Shown here one piece after another: positions 22,267 to 35,292 of a stretch of 39,832 nucleotides of DNA. The translations under genes were made by a program, and so were the position numbers. The notes beneath the pieces are model-generated. The model worked only from the letters and a program-made list of their open reading frames with translations, was not told the DNA's origin and made no database searches. The DNA comes from a virus (Duplodnaviria; Caudoviricetes): positions 1 through 39,832 of IMG/VR virus record IMGVR_UViG_3300025296_000045. One strand, written 5' to 3'. Each line of letters starts with the position of its first letter. Positions within the stretch are counted from its first letter, which is position 1.

Positions 22267-22320
22267 ATATAACACTACGCTAAGTTGGGACGCAGAGCGC
22301 CCACTAGCTACTTGTTATGC
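22267..22320 (+). repeat. attC-like site 1 (head subfamily, 54 bp)
   Basis: ATATAAC-ACTAC-GCT[A]AGT[T]GGG[A]CGC...GCGCCCACTAGC-TACTT-GTTATGC. Confidence 0.88.
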
Positions 22321-22536
22321 GGCACAAATGCCATACGGCTTTCCGCGGGTGCTTTTCCACTCTGCAATAACTTCTTCTACATCAGCATTAGCACCTATAG
22401 AAAAACCAGCTCCGTTAAAATCAAATGTAACGTAAGCAACTTGCCATAACTCAGCTTTTTGCTTTGCTTCTACCACCGCTTTTTCAACTTCTGTTCCTAC
22501 TAAAAATTCTACTTTAATTGTCATACTACTTTTCAT
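22315..22536 (-). CDS. Cassette-borne hypothetical protein
   Basis: GGAG RBS; stop TAA lies in the attC core. Confidence 0.8.
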   Translation of the reverse strand: MKSSMTIKVEFLVGTEVEKAVVEAKQKAELWQVAYVTFDFNGAGFSIGANADVEEVIAEWKSTRGKPYGICAA

Positions 22537-22552
22537 TATAGTCTCCAGTGCC

Positions 22553-22611
22553 GCATAACAACGGCATTAAATCGGACGGCACTACGTTTGCCGTTTATGC
22601 TAAGGTTATGT
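22553..22611 (+). repeat. attC-like site 2 (59 bp)
   Basis: GCATAAC-AACGG-CAT[T]AAA[T]CGG[A]C...GCCGTTTATG-CTAAG-GTTATGT. Confidence 0.9.
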
Positions 22612-22842
22612 GGATTGTCGCTTTCTAATAAATCCGTCAACATCGCCACACATTACCTTTCCGCTGTACTGAAATTTATTTTTACTAGGCCAGTAATCTA
22701 ATCGTTTTCCATTCAGTGTGCGCGACCAATGCCATTCTGTGTGTAAATTCCAACCTTCTTTGCTTGCGCTTTCAAGATTTCGTTTCTTTCTGTCTTTATT
22801 TAACTGCTTTAAAAATTTAAAGTCTTCTGCCATATCACCCAT
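22606..22842 (-). CDS. Cassette-borne hypothetical protein (start corrected to MGDMAEDF)
   Basis: AAGGAG RBS; LDYWPSKNKF motif; stop in attC core. Confidence 0.8.
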   Translation of the reverse strand: MGDMAEDFKFLKQLNKDRKKRNLESASKEGWNLHTEWHWSRTLNGKRLDYWPSKNKFQYSGKVMCGDVDGFIRKRQST

Positions 22843-22863
22843 TGATTTTCTCCTTAAATATCC

Positions 22864-22933
22864 ACATAACAACGGCTATCAAATGACACGTAACCGCTAC
22901 GCGTTTCCTTAGCATCTGTAGCTAAGGTTATGT
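22864..22933 (+). repeat. attC-like site 3 (70 bp)
   Basis: ACATAAC-AACGG-CTA[T]CAAATG[A]C...GCATCTGTAG-CTAAG-GTTATGT. Confidence 0.82.
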
Positions 22934-23176
22934 TACTAAACCAATCTCGTGTAATTTAACCTGTGCATTATGCAAACTCTCTTTATCCCAATGATCGGCA
23001 GGCATTAAATTATCTTTGTGGTTAATATCTCGCATAGCATTAATTTCATCTATCGCCATATCTAACTCGCCCATTAGGCTATCCACCAAACTAATTAACT
23101 CCACCTGTGAAACGTGGTAATTATCGCGCTGCTTTAAAACTGTTTTATAACATCTCTCTAAGCTATCTTTATTCAT
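22928..23176 (-). CDS. Hypothetical protein
   Basis: AAGGA RBS; stop TAA abuts attC 3. Confidence 0.75.
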   Translation of the reverse strand: MNKDSLERCYKTVLKQRDNYHVSQVELISLVDSLMGELDMAIDEINAMRDINHKDNLMPADHWDKESLHNAQVKLHEIGLVT

Positions 23177-23239
23177 TGTTTATTATCCTTGTTGATTAGA
23201 CTCATCTGTTCAATTCCTTGTTTGCGTTAAGTTGAAATA

Positions 23240-23284
23240 ACTTTAGCAAATACATTTGACACTGTAAAGCGTTTAAGTTAAATT
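23240..23284. promoter_or_regulatory. Overlapping divergent sigma70 promoters
   Basis: Plus TTGACA-17-TAAATT (23256-23284); minus TTTACA-17-TAAAGT. Confidence 0.65.
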
Positions 23285-23313
23285 AAGTACAGTTAATTAA
23301 ATAAGGAAAAACA

Positions 23314-23529
23314 ATGAAGCCATTAACAGACGCACAGCAAAAGATATTGAATTTTATTAAAGACTTTATCGAATACAATAGATACCCGCCAACATCAAAG
23401 GAGATAAAAGAGCATTTTAAATTTAACTCAATAAATGCAGCTTACGAGCATTTAGGCTGGATAGAAAAGAAAGGTTACATAAAGCGAACTCCTAGAGTCG
23501 CACGCTCTATTGTGGTTTTGCAGGCATAA
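23314..23529 (+). CDS. LexA DNA-binding-domain-only protein
   Basis: LT..QQ.I..FI......YPPT..EI...F.F.S.NAA.EHL....KKGYI; no peptidase domain. Confidence 0.85.
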   Translation: MKPLTDAQQKILNFIKDFIEYNRYPPTSKEIKEHFKFNSINAAYEHLGWIEKKGYIKRTPRVARSIVVLQA

Positions 23530-23584
23530 AAAATGCGCTACCACCAAGTAAGCGCACTAATTAATAAGACAAGGTAACTATAAC

Positions 23585-23773
23585 ATGTTCAAACAAAACT
23601 ATATAAACATATTTGAAAACGCTGGCGGGAACATAACAGTAGCTTACGCGACTTGTGGGGATGACGCTTTACAAATAAATGAGGTTGAGGTCGTGTCGCT
23701 AGATAAAGCCGATCTTCACACTATAGGGAGTGTGCTTAATAATATTGCTGATTCTATTGTTCAAGAGGTTTAG
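23585..23773 (+). CDS. Hypothetical protein
   Basis: ORF with AAGGT RBS in replication operon. Confidence 0.6.
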   Translation: MFKQNYINIFENAGGNITVAYATCGDDALQINEVEVVSLDKADLHTIGSVLNNIADSIVQEV

Positions 23774-23776
23774 TCA

Positions 23777-24475
23777 ATGTGTACGTTCATAAAGGCTTAC
23801 AGAAGTGAAACAGCGTCTTTTTTGGACTTTAATCCAAACGCTAACCACTTACTAAACGTGATAGCAAGAAGGGCAAGGAGAACGCCTTGTAATCTAAATA
23901 ACCTAGCTGTAGGTGAGTGTTTTATAGGTTTTAAATCGGTTGGTTTGACAGAGCAACAGTACAGAACAGCAAAAAAACACCTTCAAAAAATAGACTTAGT
24001 TTCGTTTCGTGTCGCCAGAAAGTTAACGGGTGGTGTAACGTCTGGTGTAACGGTCGCAAAGCTAATGGATTCGAGGGTTTACGATATAAATACAAGTGAG
24101 GGTAACGCCACGGCAACGCCAACCCAACGCCAACCTAACGCCAACCTAACGAGTAATAAGAATGTTAAGAATGAAAAGAATAAAGATATATGTCAGCAGG
24201 TAGCTGACGAGTTCAATAATTATTTAGGTGACGAATTGTCGTCTGTGGTTAAAGTTACTGATAAACGCAAAGCTGGTATACGTGGTTGTATTGCTCAGAT
24301 GAAAGGAACAGATCACGACTTTACAAAAATAGAAGCATGGATAGGTTTATTCGACTATATTAAAAAGTCAGATTTTCTAATGGGAAGAAAGTCAGATTGG
24401 AGCATGAGCTTTGATTTTTTAGTTAACAAATCTAATCTATTAAAAATTATCGAGGGACAATACGAGAATGAATAA
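23777..24475 (+). CDS. Replication initiator (lambda O-like)
   Basis: wHTH-like N-terminus, internal iteron linker, SDFLMG..W..SFDFL...N..KIIEGQY C-terminus; upstream of DnaB. Confidence 0.8.
   Translation: MCTFIKAYRSETASFLDFNPNANHLLNVIARRARRTPCNLNNLAVGECFIGFKSVGLTEQQYRTAKKHLQKIDLVSFRVARKLTGGVTSGVTVAKLMDSRVYDINTSEGNATATPTQRQPNANLTSNKNVKNEKNKDICQQVADEFNNYLGDELSSVVKVTDKRKAGIRGCIAQMKGTDHDFTKIEAWIGLFDYIKKSDFLMGRKSDWSMSFDFLVNKSNLLKIIEGQYENE
24104..24190 (+). repeat. Putative replication origin: 11-bp iterons plus AT-rich tract
   Basis: AACGCCACGGC AACGCCAACCC AACGCCAACCT AACGCCAACCT AACG, then three AAGAAT at 9-bp period. Confidence 0.75.
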
Positions 24476-25853
24476 AGTAATCCAGCCGCCAAACAATCAC
24501 GAGTCAGAGCAAGTTATCCTTGCTAGCTTGTTGAGAGACTCAGGCCACCAAACATGCAGAGAGGTTATGGATAGCGTTGCTAGCGATGATTTCTATAACC
24601 GAGCACATAGCGTTATCTACAAAGCAATTAAACAACTCATTGATAAAAAAATAAATCCTGACTTTGTGGCTATAGACGATCACTTATCGAAATCTAATGA
24701 TAATTTTGATTTTGGCGGGTTGACGTATCTCGCTGAAATACAGCGGTCGTTCATATCTCACAGTATGTTATCAGGAGCAGTGGCTACAGTTAAACGCACT
24801 AAGTCTGCAAGGGATTTGTTAAGCATTAGTTTTACAGTTAACGAACAGTCTAACGCTGGCGTAGACCCTGACGAAATAATCAGAGGCGTAGAAGACGGAA
24901 TAAAAGAAATATCAAGCAAGTCTGCAGCAAAAGACATAAGCCATATTTCAGACTTCGGCGAGCAATGGCTAGACGAGTTCGAACGAAACATTGAGAACCG
25001 AGGTGGCATTAGTGGATTAGCTACAGGGATAGCTGAATTAGATGAAAGGCTCTCAGGCTTCGATAGAGAAGGTTTATTTGTTTTGGCTGGTCGTCCGTCT
25101 ATGGGTAAGACGTTATTAGCCCAGACAATCATTGAGAACGTTTCTCGACGAGATTCAGAGCAATCAATGTTCTTTTCGTTAGAGATGAGCGGCAAACAGG
25201 TTTTTCAAAGGTTTGTTTCTAAAATATCTGGAGTGTGTCCTAAAAAAATACGATCAGGTGTAGACGTTAACAATGACGACTGGGGGAAAATAGCGAACGC
25301 TATAGAGCATTTAAACACTAGCGGAATTTATCTTGATACTGACCAAAAACTTTCTGTTGATCAAATACGCGCCAGGGTACGTAGAAGAATAAACAAAGCA
25401 GGTAAGCAATCTTTAATTGTTATTGATTACCTTGGATTAATGAAAAAGCCAAAAGCAGATAGAAACGACATTGCTATTGGAGAAATAACCAGTTCATTAA
25501 AAAGCTTAGCGAAAGAAATAGAAACCCCTATTTTATTATTAGTTCAAGGCTCGAGAGCGATGGACAAAACCAAACGTCCGACAATGAGTGACTTAAAAGA
25601 TTCGTCATCAATCGAAGCTGATGCAGATGTGGTTATGTTTGTTCACCGCGAAGAAGTCATTGATCCAGAGACAGAGTTAAAAGGCGTCACTGAATTAATA
25701 ATAGCTAAAGATAGGCATAACGACGGTAACGGAACAGTTTATTTGAAAAAGGTTTCAGGTGGATTTATGACAATGAATCAAGACGAGGTAGCAACGCTAG
25801 ATCACCTTGAGAATATGAGATTGAAGCCTGTTAAGAAAAAAGGATATATGTAA
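24468..25853 (+). CDS. dnaB: Replicative DNA helicase, DnaB family
   Basis: AGRPSMGKT, FSLEM, IVIDYLGLM and DLKDSSSIEADAD motifs. Confidence 0.95.
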   Translation: MNKVIQPPNNHESEQVILASLLRDSGHQTCREVMDSVASDDFYNRAHSVIYKAIKQLIDKKINPDFVAIDDHLSKSNDNFDFGGLTYLAEIQRSFISHSMLSGAVATVKRTKSARDLLSISFTVNEQSNAGVDPDEIIRGVEDGIKEISSKSAAKDISHISDFGEQWLDEFERNIENRGGISGLATGIAELDERLSGFDREGLFVLAGRPSMGKTLLAQTIIENVSRRDSEQSMFFSLEMSGKQVFQRFVSKISGVCPKKIRSGVDVNNDDWGKIANAIEHLNTSGIYLDTDQKLSVDQIRARVRRRINKAGKQSLIVIDYLGLMKKPKADRNDIAIGEITSSLKSLAKEIETPILLLVQGSRAMDKTKRPTMSDLKDSSSIEADADVVMFVHREEVIDPETELKGVTELIIAKDRHNDGNGTVYLKKVSGGFMTMNQDEVATLDHLENMRLKPVKKKGYM

Positions 25854-25865
25854 CCAGTATAATAG

Positions 25866-25894
25866 AAAAAAAAGGAGCTCAATGGCTCCTTTTT
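25866..25894. terminator. Bidirectional intrinsic terminator
   Basis: A8-GGAGC-tcaatg-GCTCC-T5 between convergent genes. Confidence 0.85.
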
Positions 25895-25920
25895 ACAATC
25901 ACTACCTTTATATGTGGTTG

Positions 25921-26148
25921 TTAAAACTCTAAGCTTGTTGCTAATTTAAGTTCGGCGCTCTTATCTTTCCATTCGTTCAATTTTGATTGATAACAAGATA
26001 TAAAAACATCTTCTAGCCTTACGTGTTTTACGCCTACTACGCCTACATCGACAAATCCTACACCGAAATAAAGGCTATCAAAAACCTGAGATTTGAAAGC
26101 TTCATTCCCGAATGCTTTATCTAAAATTTCTTTGCTTACTATAGCCAT
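25921..26148 (-). CDS. Hypothetical protein
   Basis: AAGGA RBS. Confidence 0.65.
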   Translation of the reverse strand: MAIVSKEILDKAFGNEAFKSQVFDSLYFGVGFVDVGVVGVKHVRLEDVFISCYQSKLNEWKDKSAELKLATSLEF

Positions 26149-26171
26149 AACAATTCCTTAATAGTTAATCT

Positions 26172-26369
26172 TTATCGTTTCAACACGAACACAAATAGAA
26201 ACAGCCAAGCAGACACAACACAAGCGAAGATGATAGCCTTGCTTGGTTTGTAATAAACTCCAAACTTGGTTAAATACAAATGAATAATTAACTCCAATCG
26301 TGAACAATCAAATTTAAAAAACATTACTAGAATTAAAATGCCAGCTGCCATAGTTGTTAATTCAATCAT
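26172..26369 (-). CDS. Small membrane protein (2 TM)
   Basis: Two hydrophobic segments; GAGGA RBS. Confidence 0.65.
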   Translation of the reverse strand: MIELTTMAAGILILVMFFKFDCSRLELIIHLYLTKFGVYYKPSKAIIFACVVSAWLFLFVFVLKR

Positions 26370-26381
26370 ATCTATATCCTC

Positions 26382-26720
26382 TTAAATAGTGGTTTTTAAA
26401 GGCTTTAACGCTTCCTGTATAGCCTCTGAAAAACTACAACCTCCATTGTAGAACTTGACTTCAAAATCTATGCTAAGGTCTTTATTTTCAGATGATGTAT
26501 ATATATCGTCATATGGGTTTATTTCCTTGGTTTCTACCGTGTAAACAATTCCATTGTGTACGATTGCACACCGATAAAATTGATCGTTAAAAAAATCCAA
26601 AGCATCTTCGTAACAATCTGGTATTTCTTGCCCTTCATTCAAAAGATATTCGTTAACAAAATTCTCAACGTTTTTGCCTGTAGGAATTAACTTGCCTTTT
26701 TTATGTTCAGTATCACTCAT
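26382..26720 (-). CDS. Hypothetical protein (start corrected to MSDTEHKKG)
   Basis: GGAG RBS; FYNGGCSFSEA motif. Confidence 0.7.
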   Translation of the reverse strand: MSDTEHKKGKLIPTGKNVENFVNEYLLNEGQEIPDCYEDALDFFNDQFYRCAIVHNGIVYTVETKEINPYDDIYTSSENKDLSIDFEVKFYNGGCSFSEAIQEALKPLKTTI

Positions 26721-26755
26721 TTCTATTTCTCCATATATTTTAAACATAGGTGTCA

Positions 26756-26906
26756 TTAGATACGTTTGTCATGGATGGGGTTACTATCCTACTAAGTATC
26801 ATTAACCGTTAAATAACATAAATCAGTATCAACATAACTTTTCGCATCCTTGCAGGTAGTCCACACCCAACACCATGACATTTTCGTTGTTTGTCCGCGT
26901 ATCTAA
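26756..26906 (-). ncRNA. Candidate structured non-coding element
   Basis: Nested helices TTAGATACG/CGTATCTAA and TGTCATGG/CCATGACA in a gap with no ORF in the track. Confidence 0.4.
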
Positions 26907-27000
26907 ACGTCGATTTATATTGAGTTATTACATATTTGCTAATTTACAGTTTTAGCTAAACCGTTAGGAATTTTTACAAGATGCCAATTAACTTGGCTAA

Positions 27001-27124
27001 GTGGTGTGAATCAGAAATAAAAAAGGCTTTACAGATATCTCTGGTCGAACGCTAAAGATTGGGAGTCAATAGCCAGAAATACCTATAAAACCTTCTTGTT
27101 ACATGAGTTCGACACCACCTAACG
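27001..27124 (-). ncRNA. Candidate small RNA / attenuator
   Basis: 22-bp stem (27023-27044 with 27073-27094) whose four non-Watson-Crick pairs are all G-U on minus strand; U tract follows. Confidence 0.6.
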
Positions 27125-27130
27125 AATACA

Positions 27131-27159
27131 ATTATATTATTTTACCTCCTTGCTTTCAA
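27131..27159 (-). promoter_or_regulatory. Near-consensus sigma70 promoter
   Basis: TTGAAA-17 nt-TATAAT. Confidence 0.75.
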
Positions 27160-27391
27160 GCTTGATTTTTATTAAGGCTTTAATATTATCTCTAATCGCC
27201 ATTAATTCACCTTCGGTGTACGAGCATTCAGAAGCATGAACAGCTTTGCATTCTCCATGCGAAGATCTCTCATGCCAATCAGCCTCGTCTTTAGTAAATA
27301 AACCAGCTAAAAATGAGAATTCGGTATAGCCACAGCTATTCGGTTTGTAATAATAACCACCCTTTCTAATAAAATAACACTTGTCACTCAT
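27137..27391 (-). CDS. Hypothetical protein
   Basis: YYKPNSCGYT...AGLFT..EA motif seen in phage early proteins. Confidence 0.7.
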   Translation of the reverse strand: MSDKCYFIRKGGYYYKPNSCGYTEFSFLAGLFTKDEADWHERSSHGECKAVHASECSYTEGELMAIRDNIKALIKIKLESKEVK

Positions 27392-27541
27392 CTACTTATT
27401 CTCTGCTTGTTTATTAAACTGAGAATTACTAAATTCATAATACATCGCTCTGATAAAATCATTATCCCCACCGCTTAACTCACCAGTTTCAACGACAAAG
27501 TGTATAAACTTTCTTACAGCCATTAGTTGCTCTTCACTCAT
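27392..27541 (-). CDS. Small hypothetical protein (49 aa, MSEEQLMAVRKF...)
   Basis: Hand-translated; exactly fills the gap with TAATG coupling. Confidence 0.6.
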   Translation of the reverse strand: MSEEQLMAVRKFIHFVVETGELSGGDNDFIRAMYYEFSNSQFNKQAENK

Positions 27542-27741
27542 TACCGCACCTTTACATTATCAGGGTGCGCATAAGACACACCGATTTTAGAGCACATATT
27601 GCGTACCTGAGTTAAGTTTTTACCGGTTCTTGCGCATATGTCTTGAATAGGCTTTTTGCCAGCTAGCCTTAATACGCATAGTTTCTCAGCGTCTGACCAT
27701 TCATTTTTAATTTGCTGTTTACTTTTTTGATAAGTGTACAT
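27541..27741 (-). CDS. Small HTH protein
   Basis: WSDAE...IQDICARTGKNLTQVRN; GAGGA RBS before MYTYQ. Confidence 0.6.
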   Translation of the reverse strand: MYTYQKSKQQIKNEWSDAEKLCVLRLAGKKPIQDICARTGKNLTQVRNMCSKIGVSYAHPDNVKVR

Positions 27742-27743
27742 GA

Positions 27744-27890
27744 TTATTCCTCTATCCAATCGTTTTCTAAAAGCTCTAGTTCAACCAATTCCTTTTGAGG
27801 CTCTATATACCCCTGAACAACCATTACAGCCTCTTCTATAATTGGTAAGCGTAATTCTTTTACTGATTCGTCTGTTTGTTCGTTAATCAT
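27744..27890 (-). CDS. Small acidic hypothetical protein (48 aa)
   Basis: Hand-translated MINEQTDESVKEL...; GGAG RBS. Confidence 0.55.
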   Translation of the reverse strand: MINEQTDESVKELRLPIIEEAVMVVQGYIEPQKELVELELLENDWIEE

Positions 27891-28218
27891 GGTCATTCTC
27901 CGTCAAAAGGTTTTTAATGTGGTCTTCTCTTTGCTGTATTTTTTCTTTAGCTAAATCCTTTATTCCATCATAAAGCTCAATCGGTACTTCAATAAATTTT
28001 TCATCAGTCCACCCTTGTGAATACGATCTAACTCTTGCTTTTATAGATTTAACGAATGATATAAACAACCCATGTTCACCTCTGTCACTCATACCAGGAA
28101 ATGAAACCTTATCCATAGCATCAATCAATGCTTTCAACTTAATTAGTTCGTCAGTGTTGTATTTTATGGTTTTGGATAAGTGCTCTCTATCCTCTAGGGT
28201 TTTGTACAAATCCATCAC
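27883..28218 (-). CDS. Hypothetical protein
   Basis: AAGGAG RBS. Confidence 0.7.
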   Translation of the reverse strand: MMDLYKTLEDREHLSKTIKYNTDELIKLKALIDAMDKVSFPGMSDRGEHGLFISFVKSIKARVRSYSQGWTDEKFIEVPIELYDGIKDLAKEKIQQREDHIKNLLTENDHD

Positions 28219-28306
28219 TCTTCTCCTTTATAATCATTACCCACTAACTTCTCGAAAAAATAAAATGTATCTTCTTGCCAGTTGTTTAGCTTAATTATTA
28301 GTTGAA

Positions 28307-28456
28307 TCATTTCTTTTTCACCTTTTTATATCTAGTCATAATCATTTCGTTAACAACAGACTGCTTGTTAGCGCCTAGGTTACCTTTTTCTTTTTCGTCC
28401 TCTACAACGGCCTCTAACATGCGGTGAACGTTATCTAATAGTTTTACTTGCTTCAT
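28307..28456 (-). CDS. Small ribbon-helix-helix-like regulator (start MKQVKL)
   Basis: KQVKLLDNVHRML strand-helix pattern; AAGGA RBS; next to divergent promoters. Confidence 0.55.
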   Translation of the reverse strand: MKQVKLLDNVHRMLEAVVEDEKEKGNLGANKQSVVNEMIMTRYKKVKKK

Positions 28457-28485
28457 ATGTATCCTTATTCGTTGTTGATGATTGA

Positions 28486-28549
28486 AGTTTACTCGAATTA
28501 AAATAAAAGTCAAATAAAAGTTGACTCTATTTTAAAATAAGTCTACTAT
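28486..28549. promoter_or_regulatory. Divergent sigma70 promoters with palindromic operator
   Basis: Plus TTGACT-17-TACTAT (28521-28549) containing GACT-c-TATTTTAAAATA-AGTC; minus TTGACT-16-TAAACT. Confidence 0.65.
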
Positions 28550-28580
28550 TACTCCATCGAAACGAAAACGAGCAAACAAA

Positions 28581-28736
28581 ATGAATTGTTATATAGCAGA
28601 TCAAATAGCGGCACACTGTAACCAGGAAGAAGTTTTTTGTAGTGAGTGTGGTGGCAATATGTATGAGTCTGAATTTGATAGTGATGTTTTGGAATGTTCT
28701 GAATGTGATAATACTTATGTTAAGGAAGAAGAATAA
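28581..28736 (+). CDS. Small zinc-ribbon protein (51 aa)
   Basis: Hand-translated; CSECGG...LECSEC. Confidence 0.65.
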   Translation: MNCYIADQIAAHCNQEEVFCSECGGNMYESEFDSDVLECSECDNTYVKEEE

Positions 28737-28927
28737 TGATTAGGGCAAAGATTGAATTTGATCAAGGCAAGATAGCTACAGCTATAGCAGAAGAAGTACA
28801 GAAGAGCTTGGATTCTATGGAATGCTTTGATGGTCTGACAGATAAACAGAAGCAGGATGTATTTGAAACTGTTCATTATGAGGTTAGTGATTTTTTCAGA
28901 GAAAGTAACGGCATGGAGTTGGATTAA
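28736..28927 (+). CDS. Hypothetical protein
   Basis: TAATG coupling; stop abuts attC 4. Confidence 0.7.
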   Translation: MIRAKIEFDQGKIATAIAEEVQKSLDSMECFDGLTDKQKQDVFETVHYEVSDFFRESNGMELD

Positions 28928-28980
28928 CCTTAATTGTTAAACGGCTAGCTTTGCTAGTCCGATTCAATTGGTTGTTATGT
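28922..28980 (-). repeat. attC-like site 4 (59 bp, slightly irregular)
   Basis: Minus: ACATAAC-AACCA-ATTGAA[T]CGG[A]CTAGC-aaa-GCTAGCCGTTTAAC-AATTAAG-GTTAATC. Confidence 0.78.
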
Positions 28981-29009
28981 GTTTTAACTGGAGTTGATAG
29001 GAGAATGAA

Positions 29010-29189
29010 ATGAAATTATATGTAAAAGTTGGAAGAGTTGAGCTTGAGTATAGTGAGTCTACAGATTGTGGCAATTACCCGAAAGTAACAAGCAAAGATA
29101 GTTACGAAAACGGAACAAAAAGCGACAGATTACTTGAGTTTATAAAAGAGATGGCAGACAAAGCAGCTGAAATAGAAAAAGACACATAA
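29010..29189 (+). CDS. Cassette-borne hypothetical protein (59 aa, MKLYVKVGRVELEY...)
   Basis: Hand-translated; AGGAG RBS; stop in attC core. Confidence 0.75.
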   Translation: MKLYVKVGRVELEYSESTDCGNYPKVTSKDSYENGTKSDRLLEFIKEMADKAAEIEKDT

Positions 29190-29245
29190 CCTTTTAAATA
29201 AGCGGGCGAGGCTGTTTGCGCTCCGACTTTATTTTGTTGTTATGT
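29184..29245 (-). repeat. attC-like site 5 (62 bp)
   Basis: Minus: ACATAAC-AACAA-AAT[A]AAG[T]CGG[A]GCG...CGCCCGCTTATT-TAAAAG-GTTATGT. Confidence 0.88.
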
Positions 29246-29270
29246 TGCACTTACACAAGAGGAAAGATTG

Positions 29271-30026
29271 ATGCACTACGATGAACAAAGAGAAAAAGAA
29301 CAATTGAAGTCGTGGCTAATGCAAGGTGACTGCTTAGAGCGAATGAAAGAAATACCAGACGGATCAGTTGATATGATATTGACAGACCCACCTTATGGAA
29401 CAACCGCTTGTAAGTGGGATTCTATCATCCCATTAGAGCCAATGTGGGAGCAGCTGAAGCGGGTTATTAAGCCTAATGGGGCGATTGTTTTATTTGGTTC
29501 AGAACCTTTTTCAAGTGCTTTAAGAATGAGCAATACCAAGATGTTTAAGCACGATCTAATATGGAACAAAAACACATCTTCACCCGGCCTCGCCAAAATA
29601 AGACCGATGCCATCATTCGAAAATATGATGATATTTGGTGACGGCCTGATAACTTACAACCCACAAATGGAAGCGGGAAAACCATACAGGGACGGCAGAT
29701 CGTCTGATGAACGAAACCACCAGAACGAGCACAAGTACGGCTACAAAGGGCGCAAGGCGATAAACAATAAGGGGACTAGGTACCCCAAATCAATAGTTAA
29801 TATCACAAGGGTAAACCGAAAGGGGCAACACCCAACACAAAAGCCAGTCGCACTCATGGAATACCTAATCAAAACCTACACCAACGAGACCGAAACTGTT
29901 TTGGATTTCACTATGGGCAGTGGCACAACAGGCGTTGCATGTAAGAACCTAAACCGGAAATTTATCGGAATAGAGTTAGACGAAGAATACTTCAAGATTG
30001 CACAAGGGCGTATTAGTGCAACATAA
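29271..30026 (+). CDS. Cassette-borne DNA methyltransferase (N6-A/N4-C, beta class)
   Basis: DPPY catalytic motif precedes HPTQKP and DFTMGSGTT SAM-binding motif. Confidence 0.93.
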   Translation: MHYDEQREKEQLKSWLMQGDCLERMKEIPDGSVDMILTDPPYGTTACKWDSIIPLEPMWEQLKRVIKPNGAIVLFGSEPFSSALRMSNTKMFKHDLIWNKNTSSPGLAKIRPMPSFENMMIFGDGLITYNPQMEAGKPYRDGRSSDERNHQNEHKYGYKGRKAINNKGTRYPKSIVNITRVNRKGQHPTQKPVALMEYLIKTYTNETETVLDFTMGSGTTGVACKNLNRKFIGIELDEEYFKIAQGRISAT

Positions 30027-30075
30027 CCTTTTAAATAACGGGCGTTACACGTCCCAGTTTATTTGGTTGTTATGT
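30021..30075 (-). repeat. attC-like site 6 (55 bp)
   Basis: Minus: ACATAAC-AACCA-AAT[A]AAC[T]GGG[A]CGT-gta-ACGCCCGTTATT-TAAAAG-GTTATGT. Confidence 0.9.
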
Positions 30076-30109
30076 TACCGTTACAAATACTGAACTGGAG
30101 AAATAAATA

Positions 30110-30451
30110 ATGGGTGATCCAAAATACACACCGAAAGCAAATGGGATAATGCACGAAGATGGTTATATGCTGCCAGATGATGAGCCGTTAATGATATTAC
30201 GGGGTAAAGACATCGGCGCGTTAAATAATATTGTTGATTATATAGAGATGCTACAAGAGCAAGTACCGCAAACACCTACAATAGTTAGCCACTTGAAATC
30301 ATCAAGCGAGCGACTATTGGCATTTTACAACTACCAAGTAGAAAACCCAGAATTACAAAGCGTTGGATGTTCAAGGCGATCACATATTGACTCGTTGTAT
30401 TTCTTGGGTAGAGCAGCCAAGAAATTAGTTGAACTTGGTTTAGTAACATAA
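30110..30451 (+). CDS. Cassette-borne hypothetical protein
   Basis: GGAG RBS; PDDEPLMILRGKD motif; stop in attC core. Confidence 0.8.
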   Translation: MGDPKYTPKANGIMHEDGYMLPDDEPLMILRGKDIGALNNIVDYIEMLQEQVPQTPTIVSHLKSSSERLLAFYNYQVENPELQSVGCSRRSHIDSLYFLGRAAKKLVELGLVT

Positions 30452-30499
30452 CAATGAGTTAGCAGGCGCGTAGCGTCCTAGCTAAACGAGGTGTTATAG
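30446..30499 (-). repeat. attC-like site 7 (head subfamily, 54 bp)
   Basis: Minus: CTATAAC-ACCTC-GTT[T]AGC[T]AGG[A]CGC-tac-GCGCCTGCTAAC-TCATT-GTTATGT. Confidence 0.9.
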
Positions 30500-30507
30500 G
30501 AGCATCT

Positions 30508-30639
30508 ATGAACAAACAAACAGTAACGGTAACAATTAAAGGTCAGCCAGTTTATTTTAACGGTGATGAATTAACGTCACCGGTTGAACAGGCTATTGAA
30601 TATTTGAAAGAGTTAAGCGAACAGGAGCAGGAATTCTAA
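30508..30639 (+). CDS. Small hypothetical protein (43 aa)
   Basis: Hand-translated MNKQTVTVTIKG...; AGGAG RBS; TAATG coupling to erf. Confidence 0.6.
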   Translation: MNKQTVTVTIKGQPVYFNGDELTSPVEQAIEYLKELSEQEQEF

Positions 30640-31205
30640 TGCAAAAGTCAGAATCAATAAAGGCGATAGCGTCAGCCTTGAATAAAGCACAGAATGAAAT
30701 GTCAGGGGCGCACAAAGCAAAAGATAACCCCTTCTTTAAATCTAAGTATGCTGACTTAGCTGAGGTAGTTAAAGCTGTTAAAGAGCCTTTTGCTAATAAT
30801 GGATTGAGCTATGTTCAGTTCCCTATTGAGAAAGACGGACGAATAGGCATTGAAACTATATTGATGCACGAAAGCGGCGAGTTTATGAGTAATGAATTTA
30901 CAGTACAGTTAACTAAACAGGATGCGCAAGGAGCTGGATCAGCTATTACATATTGTCGCAGATACGCTTTACAGTCTGTTGCTGGCATTCCTAGTGAAGA
31001 TGATGATGGCAATGCTGCTTCACCTCAGCCAAATCAAAAACAAGATGACGATAAGCCTTGGTATGATGATTCAAACTGGGAAGTAGATAAACAAGGGGTA
31101 ACGAATGCAATCAAGGGAGGAACTCCTCCAGAACAAGTTATTAAGCAGATAGCTGGTAGCTTTAAAATCGCTAAAAAATACCGTGAAATGATTAAGGCAA
31201 TATAA
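30639..31205 (+). CDS. erf: ERF-family single-strand annealing protein
   Basis: NPFFKSKYADL, Q..GSAITY.RRYAL and EDDDGN motifs. Confidence 0.92.
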   Translation: MQKSESIKAIASALNKAQNEMSGAHKAKDNPFFKSKYADLAEVVKAVKEPFANNGLSYVQFPIEKDGRIGIETILMHESGEFMSNEFTVQLTKQDAQGAGSAITYCRRYALQSVAGIPSEDDDGNAASPQPNQKQDDDKPWYDDSNWEVDKQGVTNAIKGGTPPEQVIKQIAGSFKIAKKYREMIKAI

Positions 31206-31206
31206 A

Positions 31207-31692
31207 ATGAACTTACGTGAATTGACAGAAGATCAAGACGCTATATTGGCGCAAGTTGAAAATGGTGATTTTACGATTGATGATGTAAGTGATCACCTTG
31301 ATATGATACGAGAGGATAGAGAGCAAAAAATCGAAAACTATCTTCATGTTATTAATCGACTAACAAGCGAAGAAATAACAGTTACAAAAGAAATCGACAG
31401 ACTCCAGGATATTAGATTAGCCAAAGAAAAGGCGCTAAAGAATATTAAAGAATGGCTGTTGATAAGCCTTAAGGATGGCGAAAAGTACGAATTTAACTTG
31501 TTTAAGGTTACTCGAGTAAAAGGTCGTGAAGTACTCCAAGTGAATAGCACTAACGATATCCCTGAGAAGTACATAACAATAAAAATGACTAACACTATAG
31601 ATAAGCGCGGCATGTTAACTGATTTAAAAAATGGCGCTGAAATAAAAGGCGCTGAACTATCAACTGGTAAATCAAGCTTAAGAATTAAATAG
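31207..31692 (+). CDS. Siphovirus Gp157-family protein
   Basis: EIDRL...L..IK..L and IPEKY..IDK..L..G.EI.GAEL....SLRIK. Confidence 0.85.
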   Translation: MNLRELTEDQDAILAQVENGDFTIDDVSDHLDMIREDREQKIENYLHVINRLTSEEITVTKEIDRLQDIRLAKEKALKNIKEWLLISLKDGEKYEFNLFKVTRVKGREVLQVNSTNDIPEKYITIKMTNTIDKRGMLTDLKNGAEIKGAELSTGKSSLRIK

Positions 31693-31701
31693 GAGAGTAA
31701 G

Positions 31702-32202
31702 ATGGGAAGAGGAATAAACAAGGTAATCGTCGTCGGTAATTTAGGGCAAGATCCAGAAGTTCGCTTTATGCCAAACGGCGGCGCAGTAGCAAATTTTACA
31801 GTAGCAACTAGTGAGGCATGGAAAGACAAGCAGTCTGGTGAGCAAAAAGAAAAAACAGAATGGCATCGTATTGTAATCTATCAACGTTTAGCTGAGATTG
31901 CCGGTGAATATTTGAAAAAAGGTTCAAAGGTATATTTAGAAGGAAAGCTTCAAACGCGTAAATGGCAAAACCAGCAAGGCGCAGATCAATACACGACAGA
32001 GATCATCGTTAATGATATGCAAATGTTGGATTCGCGTAGTCAAGGTGGTTCACAACAACAAGGTCAAGGAGGATTTAATCAGGCGCCCGCACAACAGAAA
32101 GGAGGTTTCCAGCAGGCTGCACCACAGAAGCTACCAACAATGGCACAGCAACAAGGTGGATTTCAGCAGCAAGAACCTTTTGACGATGACATTGCATTTT
32201 AA
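31702..32202 (+). CDS. ssb: Single-stranded DNA-binding protein
   Basis: [19 protein letters not shown]...TEWHR; acidic DDDIAF tail. Confidence 0.97.
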
Positions 32203-32251
32203 GTTATATAAGCACCTGCTTAATGTGGGTGCAATCCTTTAAGGAGGTAAT

Positions 32252-32440
32252 ATGATTAGCCAAGTAACATTTATAGCTAAGAATGAAAAATGTACTAGCT
32301 TGCAGCCTAAGCGTTATTTGATTAACACAGATGATAAACATCTGGCATTAAGTAAAGGGTATCAGCTTTTAATGAAAGAGAAACATTGTGATTTATATAA
32401 AGCTTTGCCTGTTAAATTTTTAGATGTGCATGATGTGTAA
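32252..32440 (+). CDS. Hypothetical protein
   Basis: AAGGAGG RBS; stop abuts attC 8. Confidence 0.65.
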   Translation: MISQVTFIAKNEKCTSLQPKRYLINTDDKHLALSKGYQLLMKEKHCDLYKALPVKFLDVHDV

Positions 32441-32561
32441 CCTTAGCTTAATGGGTTGCGTAAAGTAACCATAAACGATTTAAAGGACACAGGAATAAAT
32501 ATTATGACCGAACTAGAAAAAACACTAACTGTTAGCAATCCCGTTGAAGCCGTTGTTAGTT
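32435..32561 (-). repeat. attC-like site 8 (127 bp, long loop)
   Basis: Minus: AACTAAC-AACGG-CTT[C]AACGGG[A]TTGC...GCAACCCATTAAG-CTAAG-GTTACAC. Confidence 0.82.
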
Positions 32562-32743
32562 GTGATGAACTGAAAGTTATATGTGACACTGTTGTTGAGC
32601 TAGCAAGAATAAGGCAGAAAGGCTGCAACCATTTATGTGTTGAGAATTTCGCTCAGCAATGTTTTGGGCAATTGCTTACAGAGTTACGGCTAAATAAAGA
32701 AGGCAAACTGAGAATATTCAACACAGAATTAGAGTCCAACTAA
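32504..32743 (+). CDS. Cassette-borne hypothetical protein starting inside attC 8 (MTELEKT...)
   Basis: AGGA RBS and the only in-frame ATG lie in the attC loop; stop in attC 9 core. Confidence 0.7.
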   Translation: MTELEKTLTVSNPVEAVVSCDELKVICDTVVELARIRQKGCNHLCVENFAQQCFGQLLTELRLNKEGKLRIFNTELESN

Positions 32744-32791
32744 CATGTAGCGCACAGGCGCAACGCGTCCTAGTGGCGCGTGGTGTTATGT
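32738..32791 (-). repeat. attC-like site 9 (head subfamily, 54 bp)
   Basis: Minus: ACATAAC-ACCAC-GCG[C]CAC[T]AGG[A]CGC-gtt-GCGCCTGTGCGC-TACAT-GTTAGTT. Confidence 0.88.
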
Positions 32792-32927
32792 AAATAACTA
32801 AAACCCGAATTAACGGGCGTCTTTAACAATCTCAGTATTAAATATCTACTGGCGGCGTTGGGTTTGGGTGTACGGGCGGTAAATCTGCCCTTACATTCAA
32901 CATTCATATTACAGCTAATTGCTGTCC

Positions 32928-33404
32928 TCATTGTTTTCCACCAAACACTTTTATGATTAGCGGCTCTAAATTTTTAACTGTTCTTTCGCCGAACAAGAAA
33001 CCTAACACTAAAATATTAATTACTATCAAAGCGGTTTGTTGTTGCTCTGAATAATCAGTAACAGTAGTAAACCATTTGAAGTCTAAGTACATCGTAAAGA
33101 ACCCCCATAAAGGACGCTGCAATCCACGCAAGAATAAAATAATCCTACCAATGAACGGAAGCTGCTTTAAATCGCTAGCTGTTCCCTCTTGGCTTTCTAT
33201 TCTCTTATCTAACTGCTTAGCTGATTCTGCTACAATGCTGCTAGCTTCAATTTCCTTCTGATGTAAAAACTTCTGTAAATTTAATTCAGTTTCGGCCTTT
33301 TGCTGCGGTGTCATATCTGGCGGAAAGTAAGACATTACACCTTCTTTGATTTCCTTGAATAATCCACCACCAACAAAGTCAGCGACCTTAGATAAGATGC
33401 TCAT
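32928..33404 (-). CDS. Putative holin (3TM-holin-like)
   Basis: Amphipathic N-terminus, RPLWG TM segment and VLGFLFGERT..K motif. Confidence 0.7.
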   Translation of the reverse strand: MSILSKVADFVGGGLFKEIKEGVMSYFPPDMTPQQKAETELNLQKFLHQKEIEASSIVAESAKQLDKRIESQEGTASDLKQLPFIGRIILFLRGLQRPLWGFFTMYLDFKWFTTVTDYSEQQQTALIVINILVLGFLFGERTVKNLEPLIIKVFGGKQ

Positions 33405-33635
33405 GTTATACGCCTGTAAATCCGTTACCCGTCACTCCTTCGTCAATAATTCCTTCATTTGTTGGTTTACATACACCGGGCGAGGTTGGCTCAAACATAA
33501 TGATACTCCTTATAAATTTTGTACAGTATACCACCAATATGTAAAGAATACATTACAACGATTTAGTTATAGATAATCGTTTTTTATGCGAATACGGTAT
33601 TTCACAATATTGTTATTTTTAATTATTCTTTGGTT

Positions 33636-33902
33636 ATGAAATCAAACATAGATAAGCAAATGTCACACATAAAATCACTAGAAACTTTAGTTAAATCTAA
33701 AGACATTAAAATAATAGAATTAGAGAAAGAAATATCAAGAATGAAGCGTTTTTATATGACTAGATACGAAAAGCTAGAAAAGGCTTTTGATTTTGAATAT
33801 AAACGCGCAGAGCTTCTTCAATACGATTTAAATATGGCTGATGATTTTATATCAGAGGTTTGTGATAAATACGCATTAAAATATTCTAGGAAACCATCAT
33901 AA
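33636..33902 (+). CDS. Coiled-coil hypothetical protein
   Basis: ORF; heptad pattern. Confidence 0.6.
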   Translation: MKSNIDKQMSHIKSLETLVKSKDIKIIELEKEISRMKRFYMTRYEKLEKAFDFEYKRAELLQYDLNMADDFISEVCDKYALKYSRKPS

Positions 33903-33911
33903 GGAAATATC

Positions 33912-34121
33912 ATGCTAAACGCATTAACAGTAAATAAAATATTAGGCGGTCAGTTATTGGCTATGCAAAAACCACCTGTATCTGATTGTTACAGTCAAGC
34001 TTTTAAGCGTAAAGTTTTAAACTGCGTTAAAGATACTGGCAGCTCAAGAGAAGCAAGCAGGGTTTTTGACCTACAACGCACGATGATAGATAGATGGGTT
34101 CGTGAAGATAATAGATACTAA
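33912..34121 (+). CDS. Small HTH protein
   Basis: YSQAFKRKVL...S.REASRVFDL....IDRWVR; stop abuts attC 10. Confidence 0.7.
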   Translation: MLNALTVNKILGGQLLAMQKPPVSDCYSQAFKRKVLNCVKDTGSSREASRVFDLQRTMIDRWVREDNRY

Positions 34122-34171
34122 CCCCAAGCTTAATGGTGCCGAAGGCATCCAATTACAGCGCCTTGTTAGGC
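34116..34171 (-). repeat. attC-like site 10 (56 bp)
   Basis: Minus: GCCTAAC-AAGGC-GCT[G]TAA[T]TGG[A]TGCC-ttc-GGCACCATTAAGC-TTGGG-GTTAGTA. Confidence 0.9.
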
Positions 34172-34193
34172 GTGAACGAACAGGAGAGATGAT

Positions 34194-34382
34194 ATGAAAA
34201 AACCAAAGGAATTAACAAGCTGGGACTTCTCTGATACTGAAATGGTGCCAGAGGGATACGACATGACAAGCATACCAAAGCTAACACAAGACAACTTTCG
34301 GACGCTTATAGATGAGCATAATAATCTGGTTGAAGTTGTTAATATGTTATGTGAAAAGCATGGTCTGATTTTTGACGACTAA
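34194..34382 (+). CDS. Cassette-borne hypothetical protein
   Basis: AGGAG RBS; stop in attC core. Confidence 0.78.
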   Translation: MKKPKELTSWDFSDTEMVPEGYDMTSIPKLTQDNFRTLIDEHNNLVEVVNMLCEKHGLIFDD

Positions 34383-34436
34383 CCTTTTAAATAAACTGCG
34401 AGCGTAGCGAAGTCAGATTTGATTTTGTTGTTATGT
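34377..34436 (-). repeat. attC-like site 11 (60 bp)
   Basis: Minus: ACATAAC-AACAA-AAT[C]AAA[T]CTG[A]C...GCAGTTTATT-TAAAAG-GTTAGTC. Confidence 0.9.
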
Positions 34437-34461
34437 TACCGCCACTGAAAGGATTGATAGA

Positions 34462-34650
34462 ATGAAAGATAAAGACGAAATGAATAGCTATAGCTACTAC
34501 AGAAAAAGCACTAAGCAATGGGTTTACGTCTGCGATGGTGTAGCAGAAAACACAAATTACATATTTAGATACTCACATAAATTTAAGTTTGTCGCATTTT
34601 GGGTGATGATTTTAAATATAGATAGCGACTTACTTGATTTAGTAACATAA
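34462..34650 (+). CDS. Cassette-borne hypothetical protein
   Basis: AAGGA RBS; stop in attC core. Confidence 0.72.
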   Translation: MKDKDEMNSYSYYRKSTKQWVYVCDGVAENTNYIFRYSHKFKFVAFWVMILNIDSDLLDLVT

Positions 34651-34700
34651 CCTCGCGCTAAGTTGTGAGGTACGAATCAAATTTAAGCGCCTTGTTATAT
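34645..34700 (-). repeat. attC-like site 12 (56 bp)
   Basis: Minus: ATATAAC-AAGGC-GCT[T]AAA[T]TTG[A]T...ACAACTTAGC-GCGAG-GTTATGT. Confidence 0.85.
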
Positions 34701-34721
34701 GGCAACTTAAGGAGACAAAGA

Positions 34722-34904
34722 ATGACCACTAAATATGAAATGAGATACAAAACTAACGGATATCCTTGGAAGGTATTTGACACATACAAAACAAAAGATG
34801 ATCCAGAGTTAATATGGCATTACAAAATGTACAGTAAAAGCAAAATAATTAAAGAAGTGGAAGTTATAGAGGTAATAACGACTAGAAATAAAATTGCCAT
34901 ATAA
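34722..34904 (+). CDS. Cassette-borne hypothetical protein (start corrected to MTTKYEMRY)
   Basis: TAAGGAG RBS; stop in attC core. Confidence 0.78.
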   Translation: MTTKYEMRYKTNGYPWKVFDTYKTKDDPELIWHYKMYSKSKIIKEVEVIEVITTRNKIAI

Positions 34905-34958
34905 CCATTTAAATAAACGGTGCAGCGTAGCAAGTCCGCTTTAATTTGCTTGTTATGT
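34899..34958 (-). repeat. attC-like site 13 (60 bp)
   Basis: Minus: ACATAAC-AAGCA-AAT[T]AAA[G]CGG[A]...CCGTTTATT-TAAATG-GTTATAT. Confidence 0.88.
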
Positions 34959-34982
34959 TGCGGACCAGATAGGAGAGGAAAA

Positions 34983-35243
34983 ATGAATTGTAAAGATTGT
35001 AAGTACTGGAGTGAGCGAGATCGGTACGAGGACGATAAAGATATTGACGTTAGAAAATGCACTAGAGTTAAAATGTTCTGGGATTGTACTGAGTGGGGTG
35101 ATGAAGATAACAACTACGAGCGAAGATTTACTAAGGCTGCTGAGAATAATAAGGCATTTGTTCAAGACGGCAGTGATTATATAGCGCACTTGTTAACGCT
35201 TGGTGATTTCGGGTGTAATCAATTTGAAGCCAAAGCAACATAA
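34983..35243 (+). CDS. Cassette-borne Cys-rich protein (start corrected to MNCKDCKYW)
   Basis: GAGGA RBS; CxxC...C...DFGC motif; stop in attC core. Confidence 0.8.
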   Translation: MNCKDCKYWSERDRYEDDKDIDVRKCTRVKMFWDCTEWGDEDNNYERRFTKAAENNKAFVQDGSDYIAHLLTLGDFGCNQFEAKAT

Positions 35244-35292
35244 CAATGAGTTAGTGGGCGACTCGTCGTCCCAACTCAACGAGGTGTTATGA
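35238..35292 (-). repeat. attC-like site 14 (head subfamily, 55 bp)
   Basis: Minus: TCATAAC-ACCTC-GTT[G]AGT[T]GGG[A]CGAC-ga-GTCGCCCACTAAC-TCATT-GTTATGT. Confidence 0.9.

Follow-up and report, generated by a model that had tools for sequence, protein, structure and literature searches.

The attC sites of integrons follow a structural rule of two to three extra-helical bases, spaced 6 bp from first to last, the last of which is a T on the bottom strand, and the integrase IntI carries out intermolecular insertion between two attC sites (attC x attC) (PMC5027507). Efficient cruciform extrusion from double-stranded DNA is limited to attC sites with short loops (PMC8946536), and the attI site recombines in double-stranded form (PMC12614218). 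Most of the attC clusters without an integrase have no intI remnant nearby, and their origin is open (10.1101/2022.09.11.507474). Such clusters lacking an integron integrase (CALINs) have already been published from phages by Qi et al. 2023, and the phage attC sites were found to recombine with attI1 under IntI1 (PMC9892861). The main text of that report contains no rule of reversed genes, no distinct first site and no empty loci, and its single attI example is a linear Shewanella-type site, unlike the hairpins described below (PMC9892861).

Here we describe the attC arrays of a virus record of 39,832 bases (the window, i.e. the whole stretch of DNA analysed), which has a CheckV completeness of 100% and no end repeats. 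The window encodes a terminase, portal, capsid and ejection proteins, an O-like initiator, DnaB, ERF, a Gam-like protein, SSB, ninB and ninG, and the sequencing runs that contain this phage include marine and seawater metagenomes. With 14 attC sites (at least two being required) and no integron integrase, it is a CALIN, and it shares with the published phage CALINs both the attC arrays without intI and a DNA methyltransferase cassette (PMC9892861). The integron integrase model TIGR02249 has no match in the window, and no tyrosine recombinase family was found among the 54 window proteins compared with PHROGs or the 24 compared with Pfam. An Rfam search gave 0 matches, a BLAST search against GenBank phages returned no cultured phage with these sites, and promoter-like matches in the window were at chance level (37 versus 49.7), as was the terminator scan.

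The 14 sites form four arrays, A to D, of 3, 4, 2 and 5 sites, at 22270, 22556 and 22867 (A), at 28925, 29187, 30024 and 30449 (B), at 32438 and 32741 (C), and at 34119, 34380, 34648, 34902 and 35241 (D). They were called with a purpose-made attC scanner, which long or degenerate attC sites escape: the site at 28925 was missed and was recovered by pattern. In shuffled windows the scanner gave 0.6 matches per shuffle at a score of at least 10.5 and none above 11.5. The coordinates of all sites and cassette genes are collected in the table.

Table. Array sites and cassette genes of the window; L212 is the close relative treated in the text.
Position	Strand	Feature	Remark
22267..22320	+	Head A, 54-bp resident hairpin, first of array A, then 49-codon gene and ninB	Identical in L212
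22315..22536	-	Cassette gene, 73 aa, no family	
22553..22611	+	Ordinary attC, array A	
22606..22872	-	Cassette gene, ORF of at most 88 aa, no family	
22864..22933	+	Ordinary attC, last of array A	
28922..28980	-	Ordinary attC, last of array B, weakest stem	Found by pattern, missed by scanner
29010..29189	+	Cassette gene, 59 aa, no family	
29184..29245	-	Ordinary attC, array B	
29268..30026	+	Cassette gene, DNA methyltransferase, PF01555	
30021..30075	-	Ordinary attC, array B	Close copies in other phages
30110..30451	+	Cassette gene, 113 aa; stop is TAA of R' box of head B	
30446..30499	-	Head B, 54-bp resident hairpin, first of array B	Identical in L212
32435..32561	-	Long ordinary attC, 127 bp, array C, gene start in loop	
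32456..32743	+	Cassette gene, up to 95 aa, phrog_13614 (function not assigned)	
32738..32791	-	Head C, 54-bp resident hairpin, first of array C	Identical in L212
34116..34171	-	Ordinary attC, last of array D	
34194..34382	+	Cassette gene, 62 aa	
34377..34436	-	Ordinary attC, array D	
34462..34650	+	Cassette gene, 62 aa	
34645..34700	-	Ordinary attC, array D	
34665..34904	+	Cassette gene, ORF of at most 79 aa	
34899..34958	-	Ordinary attC, array D	
34920..35243	+	Cassette gene, ORF of at most 107 aa; stop is TAA of R' box of head D	
35238..35292	-	Head D, 55-bp resident hairpin, first of array D; 83% like head B	

A first-pass annotation of the sequence had set four of these sites apart as a distinct subfamily at the start of the arrays, and its description of the sites in the window was confirmed. 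The four sites, hereafter heads, lie where it placed them and carry the pattern it gave, starting with TAAC-AC and ending with T-GTTA, with 7-bp R boxes, a loop of 3-4 nt and lengths of 54, 54, 54 and 55 bp; they score 13 in the scanner. The ten remaining sites, of 55-127 bp, all start with TAAC-AA and end with G-GTTA, as it had stated. Each of arrays A-D holds exactly one head, which comes first among the sites when read on the attC top strand and last in transcription. Cassette borders fall at the G|TT of R' and the bulges are on the R''-L'' arm, as in canonical attC sites. Relative to attC, the cassette genes all read in antisense, each of them using the TAA of the next R' box as its stop codon; they therefore run with the operon. 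The orientation of arrays B, C and D is the same, and array A is opposed to D. Behind head B, which has three extra-helical bases and a 3-nt loop, come a 43-codon gene and the ERF-Gam-SSB genes; head C is followed by a small hairpin and a convergent ORF, with no sense gene, and the start codon of ninG is located inside the R'' box of head D. The long site 32435-32561 holds a ribosome-binding site and a start codon in its loop, so that its right arm is translated, and has close copies in two other records (G001 and G004).

The ends of nine of the ten window cassettes are complementary over 5-10 bases beyond AAC/GTT, the tenth having 2. No cassette start was found outside the heads, as the first-pass annotation had also claimed (10 cassettes for 14 sites): within 3 kb upstream the best partners reach only 2, 2, 4 and 4 bases, and the last of the 4-base partners falls within the ninG start, at a distance of 14 bp. 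The gene at 22928-23176, at the far end of array A, has a cassette-type ending with no attC before it, and is possibly a fixed former cassette. Unrelated cassette genes share the final codons Leu-Val-Thr-stop, complementary to the start behind their own attC (window 22915-22930, 30436-30452 and 34635-34651; L085 9010-9050 and 9820-9850), and one attC with its leader is common to different ORFs (window 30024, L085 9580); the shared endings are possibly a trace of cassette making.

The compensatory stem changes reported for the four heads are indeed present: all 48 stem cells are paired (12 of 12 positions in each head), with two pair types at 7 of the 12 positions, although with n=4 the shuffling of arms is uninformative. 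The 20 heads found in other virus records (see below) have 51-57 bp and two bulges, so that the 54-55 bp form given in the first-pass annotation describes the window heads and the family is broader. In these 20, 219 of 240 stem cells pair and at least two pair types occur at 11 of the 12 positions, the maximum after shuffling of arms being 176 paired cells in 2000 trials. Judging from this covariation of the stems, the head fold is under selection. R'' and R' boxes with AAC and GTT, L'' and L' boxes and a central spacer of 5-6 nt are found in all four window heads, and in all of the 20 others by construction of the scanner. The last extra-helical base is the attC-typical one (T on the bottom strand) in 4/4 window heads and 19/20 others, and the first is the usual G (bottom strand) in only 1/4 and 7/20, respectively; among ordinary linked phage sites it is G in 37/90. 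The predicted probability of the recombinogenic fold has a median of 0.22 in heads versus 0.034 in linked AA sites (p 3e-4), a difference due for the most part to the short loop. The fold of the gene-coding (bottom) strand is the more stable one in all four window heads, by 0.4-0.7 kcal/mol, and in just 9 of the 20 others; energy therefore does not pick the reacting strand. The T before GTT is not specific to heads, being found also in 5/112 AA sites and 6/17 of the sites of other types.

The position of head-type sites was judged across further virus records. A scan with the pattern of the internal sites gave 123 loci, 32 of which have at least two sites, and several of these start with a shorter, two-bulge AC...T hairpin; two position-blind scans for this two-bulge type gave 7 and 19 loci, from which one chance match and repeats were dropped. 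In total 45 near-whole records were scanned (the window, L212 and one duplicate record being left out), which yielded 175 unique sites, 169 of them with room to be judged. When an upstream link was defined as a cassette start with at least 5 complementary bases, none of the 20 AC...T sites (16 records) was linked, versus 100 of the 122 AA sites (Fisher p 5e-13, which overstates independence, since several of the 20 heads are related by descent and there are fewer than 20 independent cases). Links were found for 14 of 18 sites of other types, for 2 of 9 sites with C second that are otherwise different, and for 88 of 1200 random TAAC positions taken as a control. With the criterion widened to any site at most 1 kb upstream, the counts are 1/20 heads versus 112/122 AA sites; the exception is G047 450, which a segment of several ORFs separates from an attC 859 bp upstream. 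These counts agree with the positional bias that the first-pass annotation had proposed to test across phages, and the observations it had named as fatal, a common internal position or travel with particular genes, were not made: no head-type site is linked, and the neighbouring gene changes or moves without the head.

A cassette follows the head in 13 of the 20 cases. Of 91 linked cassettes, 77 are filled to at least half by an antisense ORF and 22 by a sense ORF, 20 being counted in both groups. Two linked cassette attC sites carry C at the diagnostic second spacer position (G005 41024 and G017 59288). The segment between the G047 head and the last attC of the preceding array (L312 496-1355) contains an ORF resembling by eye an HNH endonuclease. 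A 22-kb contig, G024, has five head-like hairpins, at 815, 3683, 9333, 11975 and 12438, some of them with CC or TC instead of AC, and one of these hairpins precedes a ninG-like gene, as head D does. In 400 other genomes of the class of G033, itself a genome with two full-length IntI, the two-bulge head pattern had 0 matches, a weak negative given that the integron content of these genomes is not known.

Empty loci, in which a stop codon runs straight into a head, had been suggested as a check and were found for two-bulge relatives. In record G003 the stop codon of a gene runs directly into the head, with no cassette. L309 and L310 have the head and both flanks in common (94-96%), and L310 has an extra 198 bp starting exactly at G|TT, made up of a 52-codon gene and the right half of an attC only. 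In the second pair, L298 has an empty head adjoining an SSB gene, and L299 has the downstream gene of L298, three cassettes (825 bp) at G|TT, and the empty flank behind its last attC. Both pairs concern two-bulge heads of other phages; for the arrays of the window themselves, no empty form is among the 15 listed of 51 contig joints described below.

The claim that the subfamily heads every array was right for this phage and too wide for others. When arrays were walked back to their start, 41 rows had no scored hairpin; 18 of these were judged by eye to be true starts, and 23 were dropped as repeats, visible or long attC sites or weak links. In these 18 arrays, from 16 other records, the first site is linear and attI-like; it resembles an L box, 5 bp and GTT, and lacks a good left arm within 400 bp. 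Of the 18 sites, 13 end in GT|GTT, a number that the choice by eye may bias. In the fold, the uncut arm of a hairpin head is the reverse complement of the first spacer followed by GTT, which likewise gives GT|GTT. In addition, close copies of the window attC at 30024 stand behind both hairpin and linear heads, so that the two kinds look interchangeable. Two records show linear heads in multiple copies, G009 (L234) with two tandem copies at 41334 and 41874 and one cassette each, and G005 with two divergent arrays from back-to-back linear heads at 41299 and 42489.

A search of 185,579 genomes with the three-bulge pattern of the window heads gave three matches, of which one is real. This match, L212, is a phage-like contig of 6.9 kb from a metagenome-assembled genome that carries the label Aliivibrio; its long backbone matches to the window have 75-98% identity. 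Heads A, B and C are identical in L212 and their downstream flanks are the same, and the adjoining cassettes are different; in array C the 62-codon gene and the head are those of the window, and exactly between their AA|C borders there is a different attC with a gene of 238 codons. The L212 genome bin contains two integron integrases on other contigs, although binning does not prove the host. In viral_contigs the strict three-bulge pattern had 0 matches and a looser one three, none of them a hairpin by the scanner; the three matches in metagenome_contigs are all the window phage. Going by these searches, the exact three-bulge form appears to be confined to the lineage of the window. Among 80 relatives of ninG, none has an array adjoining ninG, and 2 of the 80 have one attC-like match.

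Contigs of four public runs (four studies) that join parts of the window gave 51 joints, 15 of which are listed. The joint 34379/28925, which connects the cassette 34119-34379 to the last attC of array B, occurs in all four runs, and run X2 has the joints 28924/30024, 29186/32438, 22924/30031 and 32442/32741 at R boxes. In run X10 the gene that precedes head B in the window (30110..30451) is followed by an ordinary attC, and contigs of three of the four runs start at or just before the R' box of head B. These joints suggest that cassettes move among the four arrays in related strains, with exchange at R boxes. The layout of X2 is that of L212, perhaps the same strain, so the two were counted once. 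In L212 (4234-4560) and X2, head A and ninB are also connected to the beginning of array D; an inversion of window 22320-35237 between the opposed arrays A and D would give this junction, which in L212 comes from one assembly where a mis-join is possible. In run X11, loose ends at 34651/35289 show another three-bulge head variant with other stem pairs, behind the cassette ending at 34650.

We consider it probable that the heads are resident attC-shaped hairpins that stand first in arrays, likely act as insertion points in place of attI and are probably recombined as folded single strands by the integron integrase of the host. The first-pass annotation had likewise called them resident landing pads equivalent to attI; that they are resident, first, empty in related phages and the place of insertion at G|TT is borne out, and the equivalence has the limits set out further below. 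In terms of mechanism, a head sits in an early operon, often on the stop codon of a backbone gene, and occurs cassette-free in related phages. As the empty and filled pairs suggest, a circular cassette would join at the G|TT of the head, between the head and the upstream gene, the head would stay, and the old flank would reappear behind the last attC. Promoters of the phage upstream may replace Pc. From known integron chemistry, the reaction would be attC x attC by IntI, and a head, with its very short loop and fully paired stem, could fold even from supercoiled double-stranded DNA and may be the readiest target. The head would be kept when a cassette is excised, since it is cut at its distal (R') end and has no cassette start in front of it. 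The GT before GTT on the uncut arm, common to the linear attI-like heads, may mark acceptor sites. No phage-encoded recombinase was found that could be assigned to the heads: PF00589 is present in 8 of 36 records and is missing from the complete head-bearing records G004, G011 and G034, and IntI above cut-off was found in 0 of 46 other virus records. As to the order of insertion, the traced arrays have no shared cassettes and show no decay gradient away from the head.

Three other explanations deserve to be weighed. Heads could be ordinary attC sites stranded at the array start after the gene and start of the first cassette were lost, alike by descent, with insertion taking place at any attC. 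The geometry retains any first attC, heads keep all the structural features of attC, the traced arrays offer no shared cassettes or decay gradient that would show a preference in insertion, and 10 of the 122 AA-type sites are likewise unlinked without an upstream site. A stranded origin, however, predicts that the head type is common inside arrays, which is contrary to the absence of links among the 20 heads; the uncut arms of linked attC sites read TT in 91/107 and GT in 1/107, the head type recurs in 16 records with different stems, and heads B and D are 83% alike yet stand before unrelated genes, head C standing before no sense gene. We regard this explanation as improbable. Slightly less credit still is due to the idea that the heads are used in double-stranded form, like a simple attI-type site made of an L box, a 5-bp spacer and an R box, the hairpin having another role or being a relic; in attI the two boxes lie 4-5 bp apart. 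This idea fits the right halves of heads B and D, which contain TAAC-5 bp-GTTA, a perfect inverted pair, as well as the linear heads elsewhere, which resemble the right half of an attC and mostly end in GT|GTT, and the published Shewanella attI, which ends T-GTT like the heads (PMC9892861). On the other hand, TAGC and GCGC replace the inner TAAC in heads A and C, compensatory changes keep the stem paired with bulges at attC positions, and in hairpin heads the GT mark belongs to the left arm, so that only folding of the strand brings it to the R box.

It is more doubtful again, and in our judgement very unlikely, that heads B and C belong, as attC sites, to large multi-gene cassettes that have become domesticated, namely a 1989-bp SSB-Gam-ERF module and a 1378-bp module, within a single array B-C-D. 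Since B, C and D are co-oriented, recombination sites do formally flank these modules, and the layout at G047 450 is similar; the module ends, however, share 1 complementary base beyond AAC/GTT, compared with 5-10 in nine of the ten cassettes, no site precedes heads A and D, and in a relative, L006, the 43-codon gene and ERF are present and no head was detected. Within the favoured reading of resident insertion points, a more far-reaching proposal is tentative and, in our view, rather unlikely as a whole: phages may have evolved folded sites dedicated to the acceptor role, which would make four att types together with attI, attC and attG. Such sites would have been copied to several points of the early operons, would found new arrays with the host integrase, would be marked as acceptors by the GT before GTT on the uncut arm, like the linear attI sites of phages, and, between facing arrays, would let the integrase invert the whole replication-recombination region.

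Compared with bacterial attI, the heads are the same in being first, resident and crossed over at G|TT with cassettes accumulating behind them, and differ in having neither an adjoining intI nor a Pc reading into the array, the genes being read towards the head; furthermore, the head is a covarying bulged hairpin, whereas attI is a double-stranded substrate (PMC12614218). With the attC sites described by Nivina et al. 2016 they share the R and L boxes, the AAC/GTT core, 5-nt spacers, two to three bulges 6 bp apart and the conserved last bulge, but they lie outside the cassette, have an AC...T spacer and a variable first bulge, and are below the quoted range of 57-141 bp (PMC5027507), with 54-55 bp in the window and 51-57 bp, median 51, in the 20 others. 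The attG sites of Loot et al. (bioRxiv 10.1101/2022.09.11.507474) likewise receive insertions outside the integron platform, and have been proposed as the origin of small CALINs and SALINs; they are minimal, double-stranded GWT sites cut centrally, whereas the heads are a structured, recurring family of 51-57 bp. A head is thus neither a full attC (not part of a cassette and too short), nor an attI (no intI or Pc, and a hairpin), nor an attG, and it is attI-like in position and crossover. No report of a resident hairpin first site was found in the literature, in which subscription journals were thinly covered.

Cassette finders would score heads as cassette attC sites and empty heads as lone cassettes. 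The head is a concrete natural start of an array for which no attI and no integrase gene are required, and it has been seen in both the empty and the filled state. Heads also offer short testable substrates with which to ask which features turn a folded site into an acceptor. The existence of such a start suggests that phage arrays are built by attC x attC recombination, which is known as a side route of insertion.
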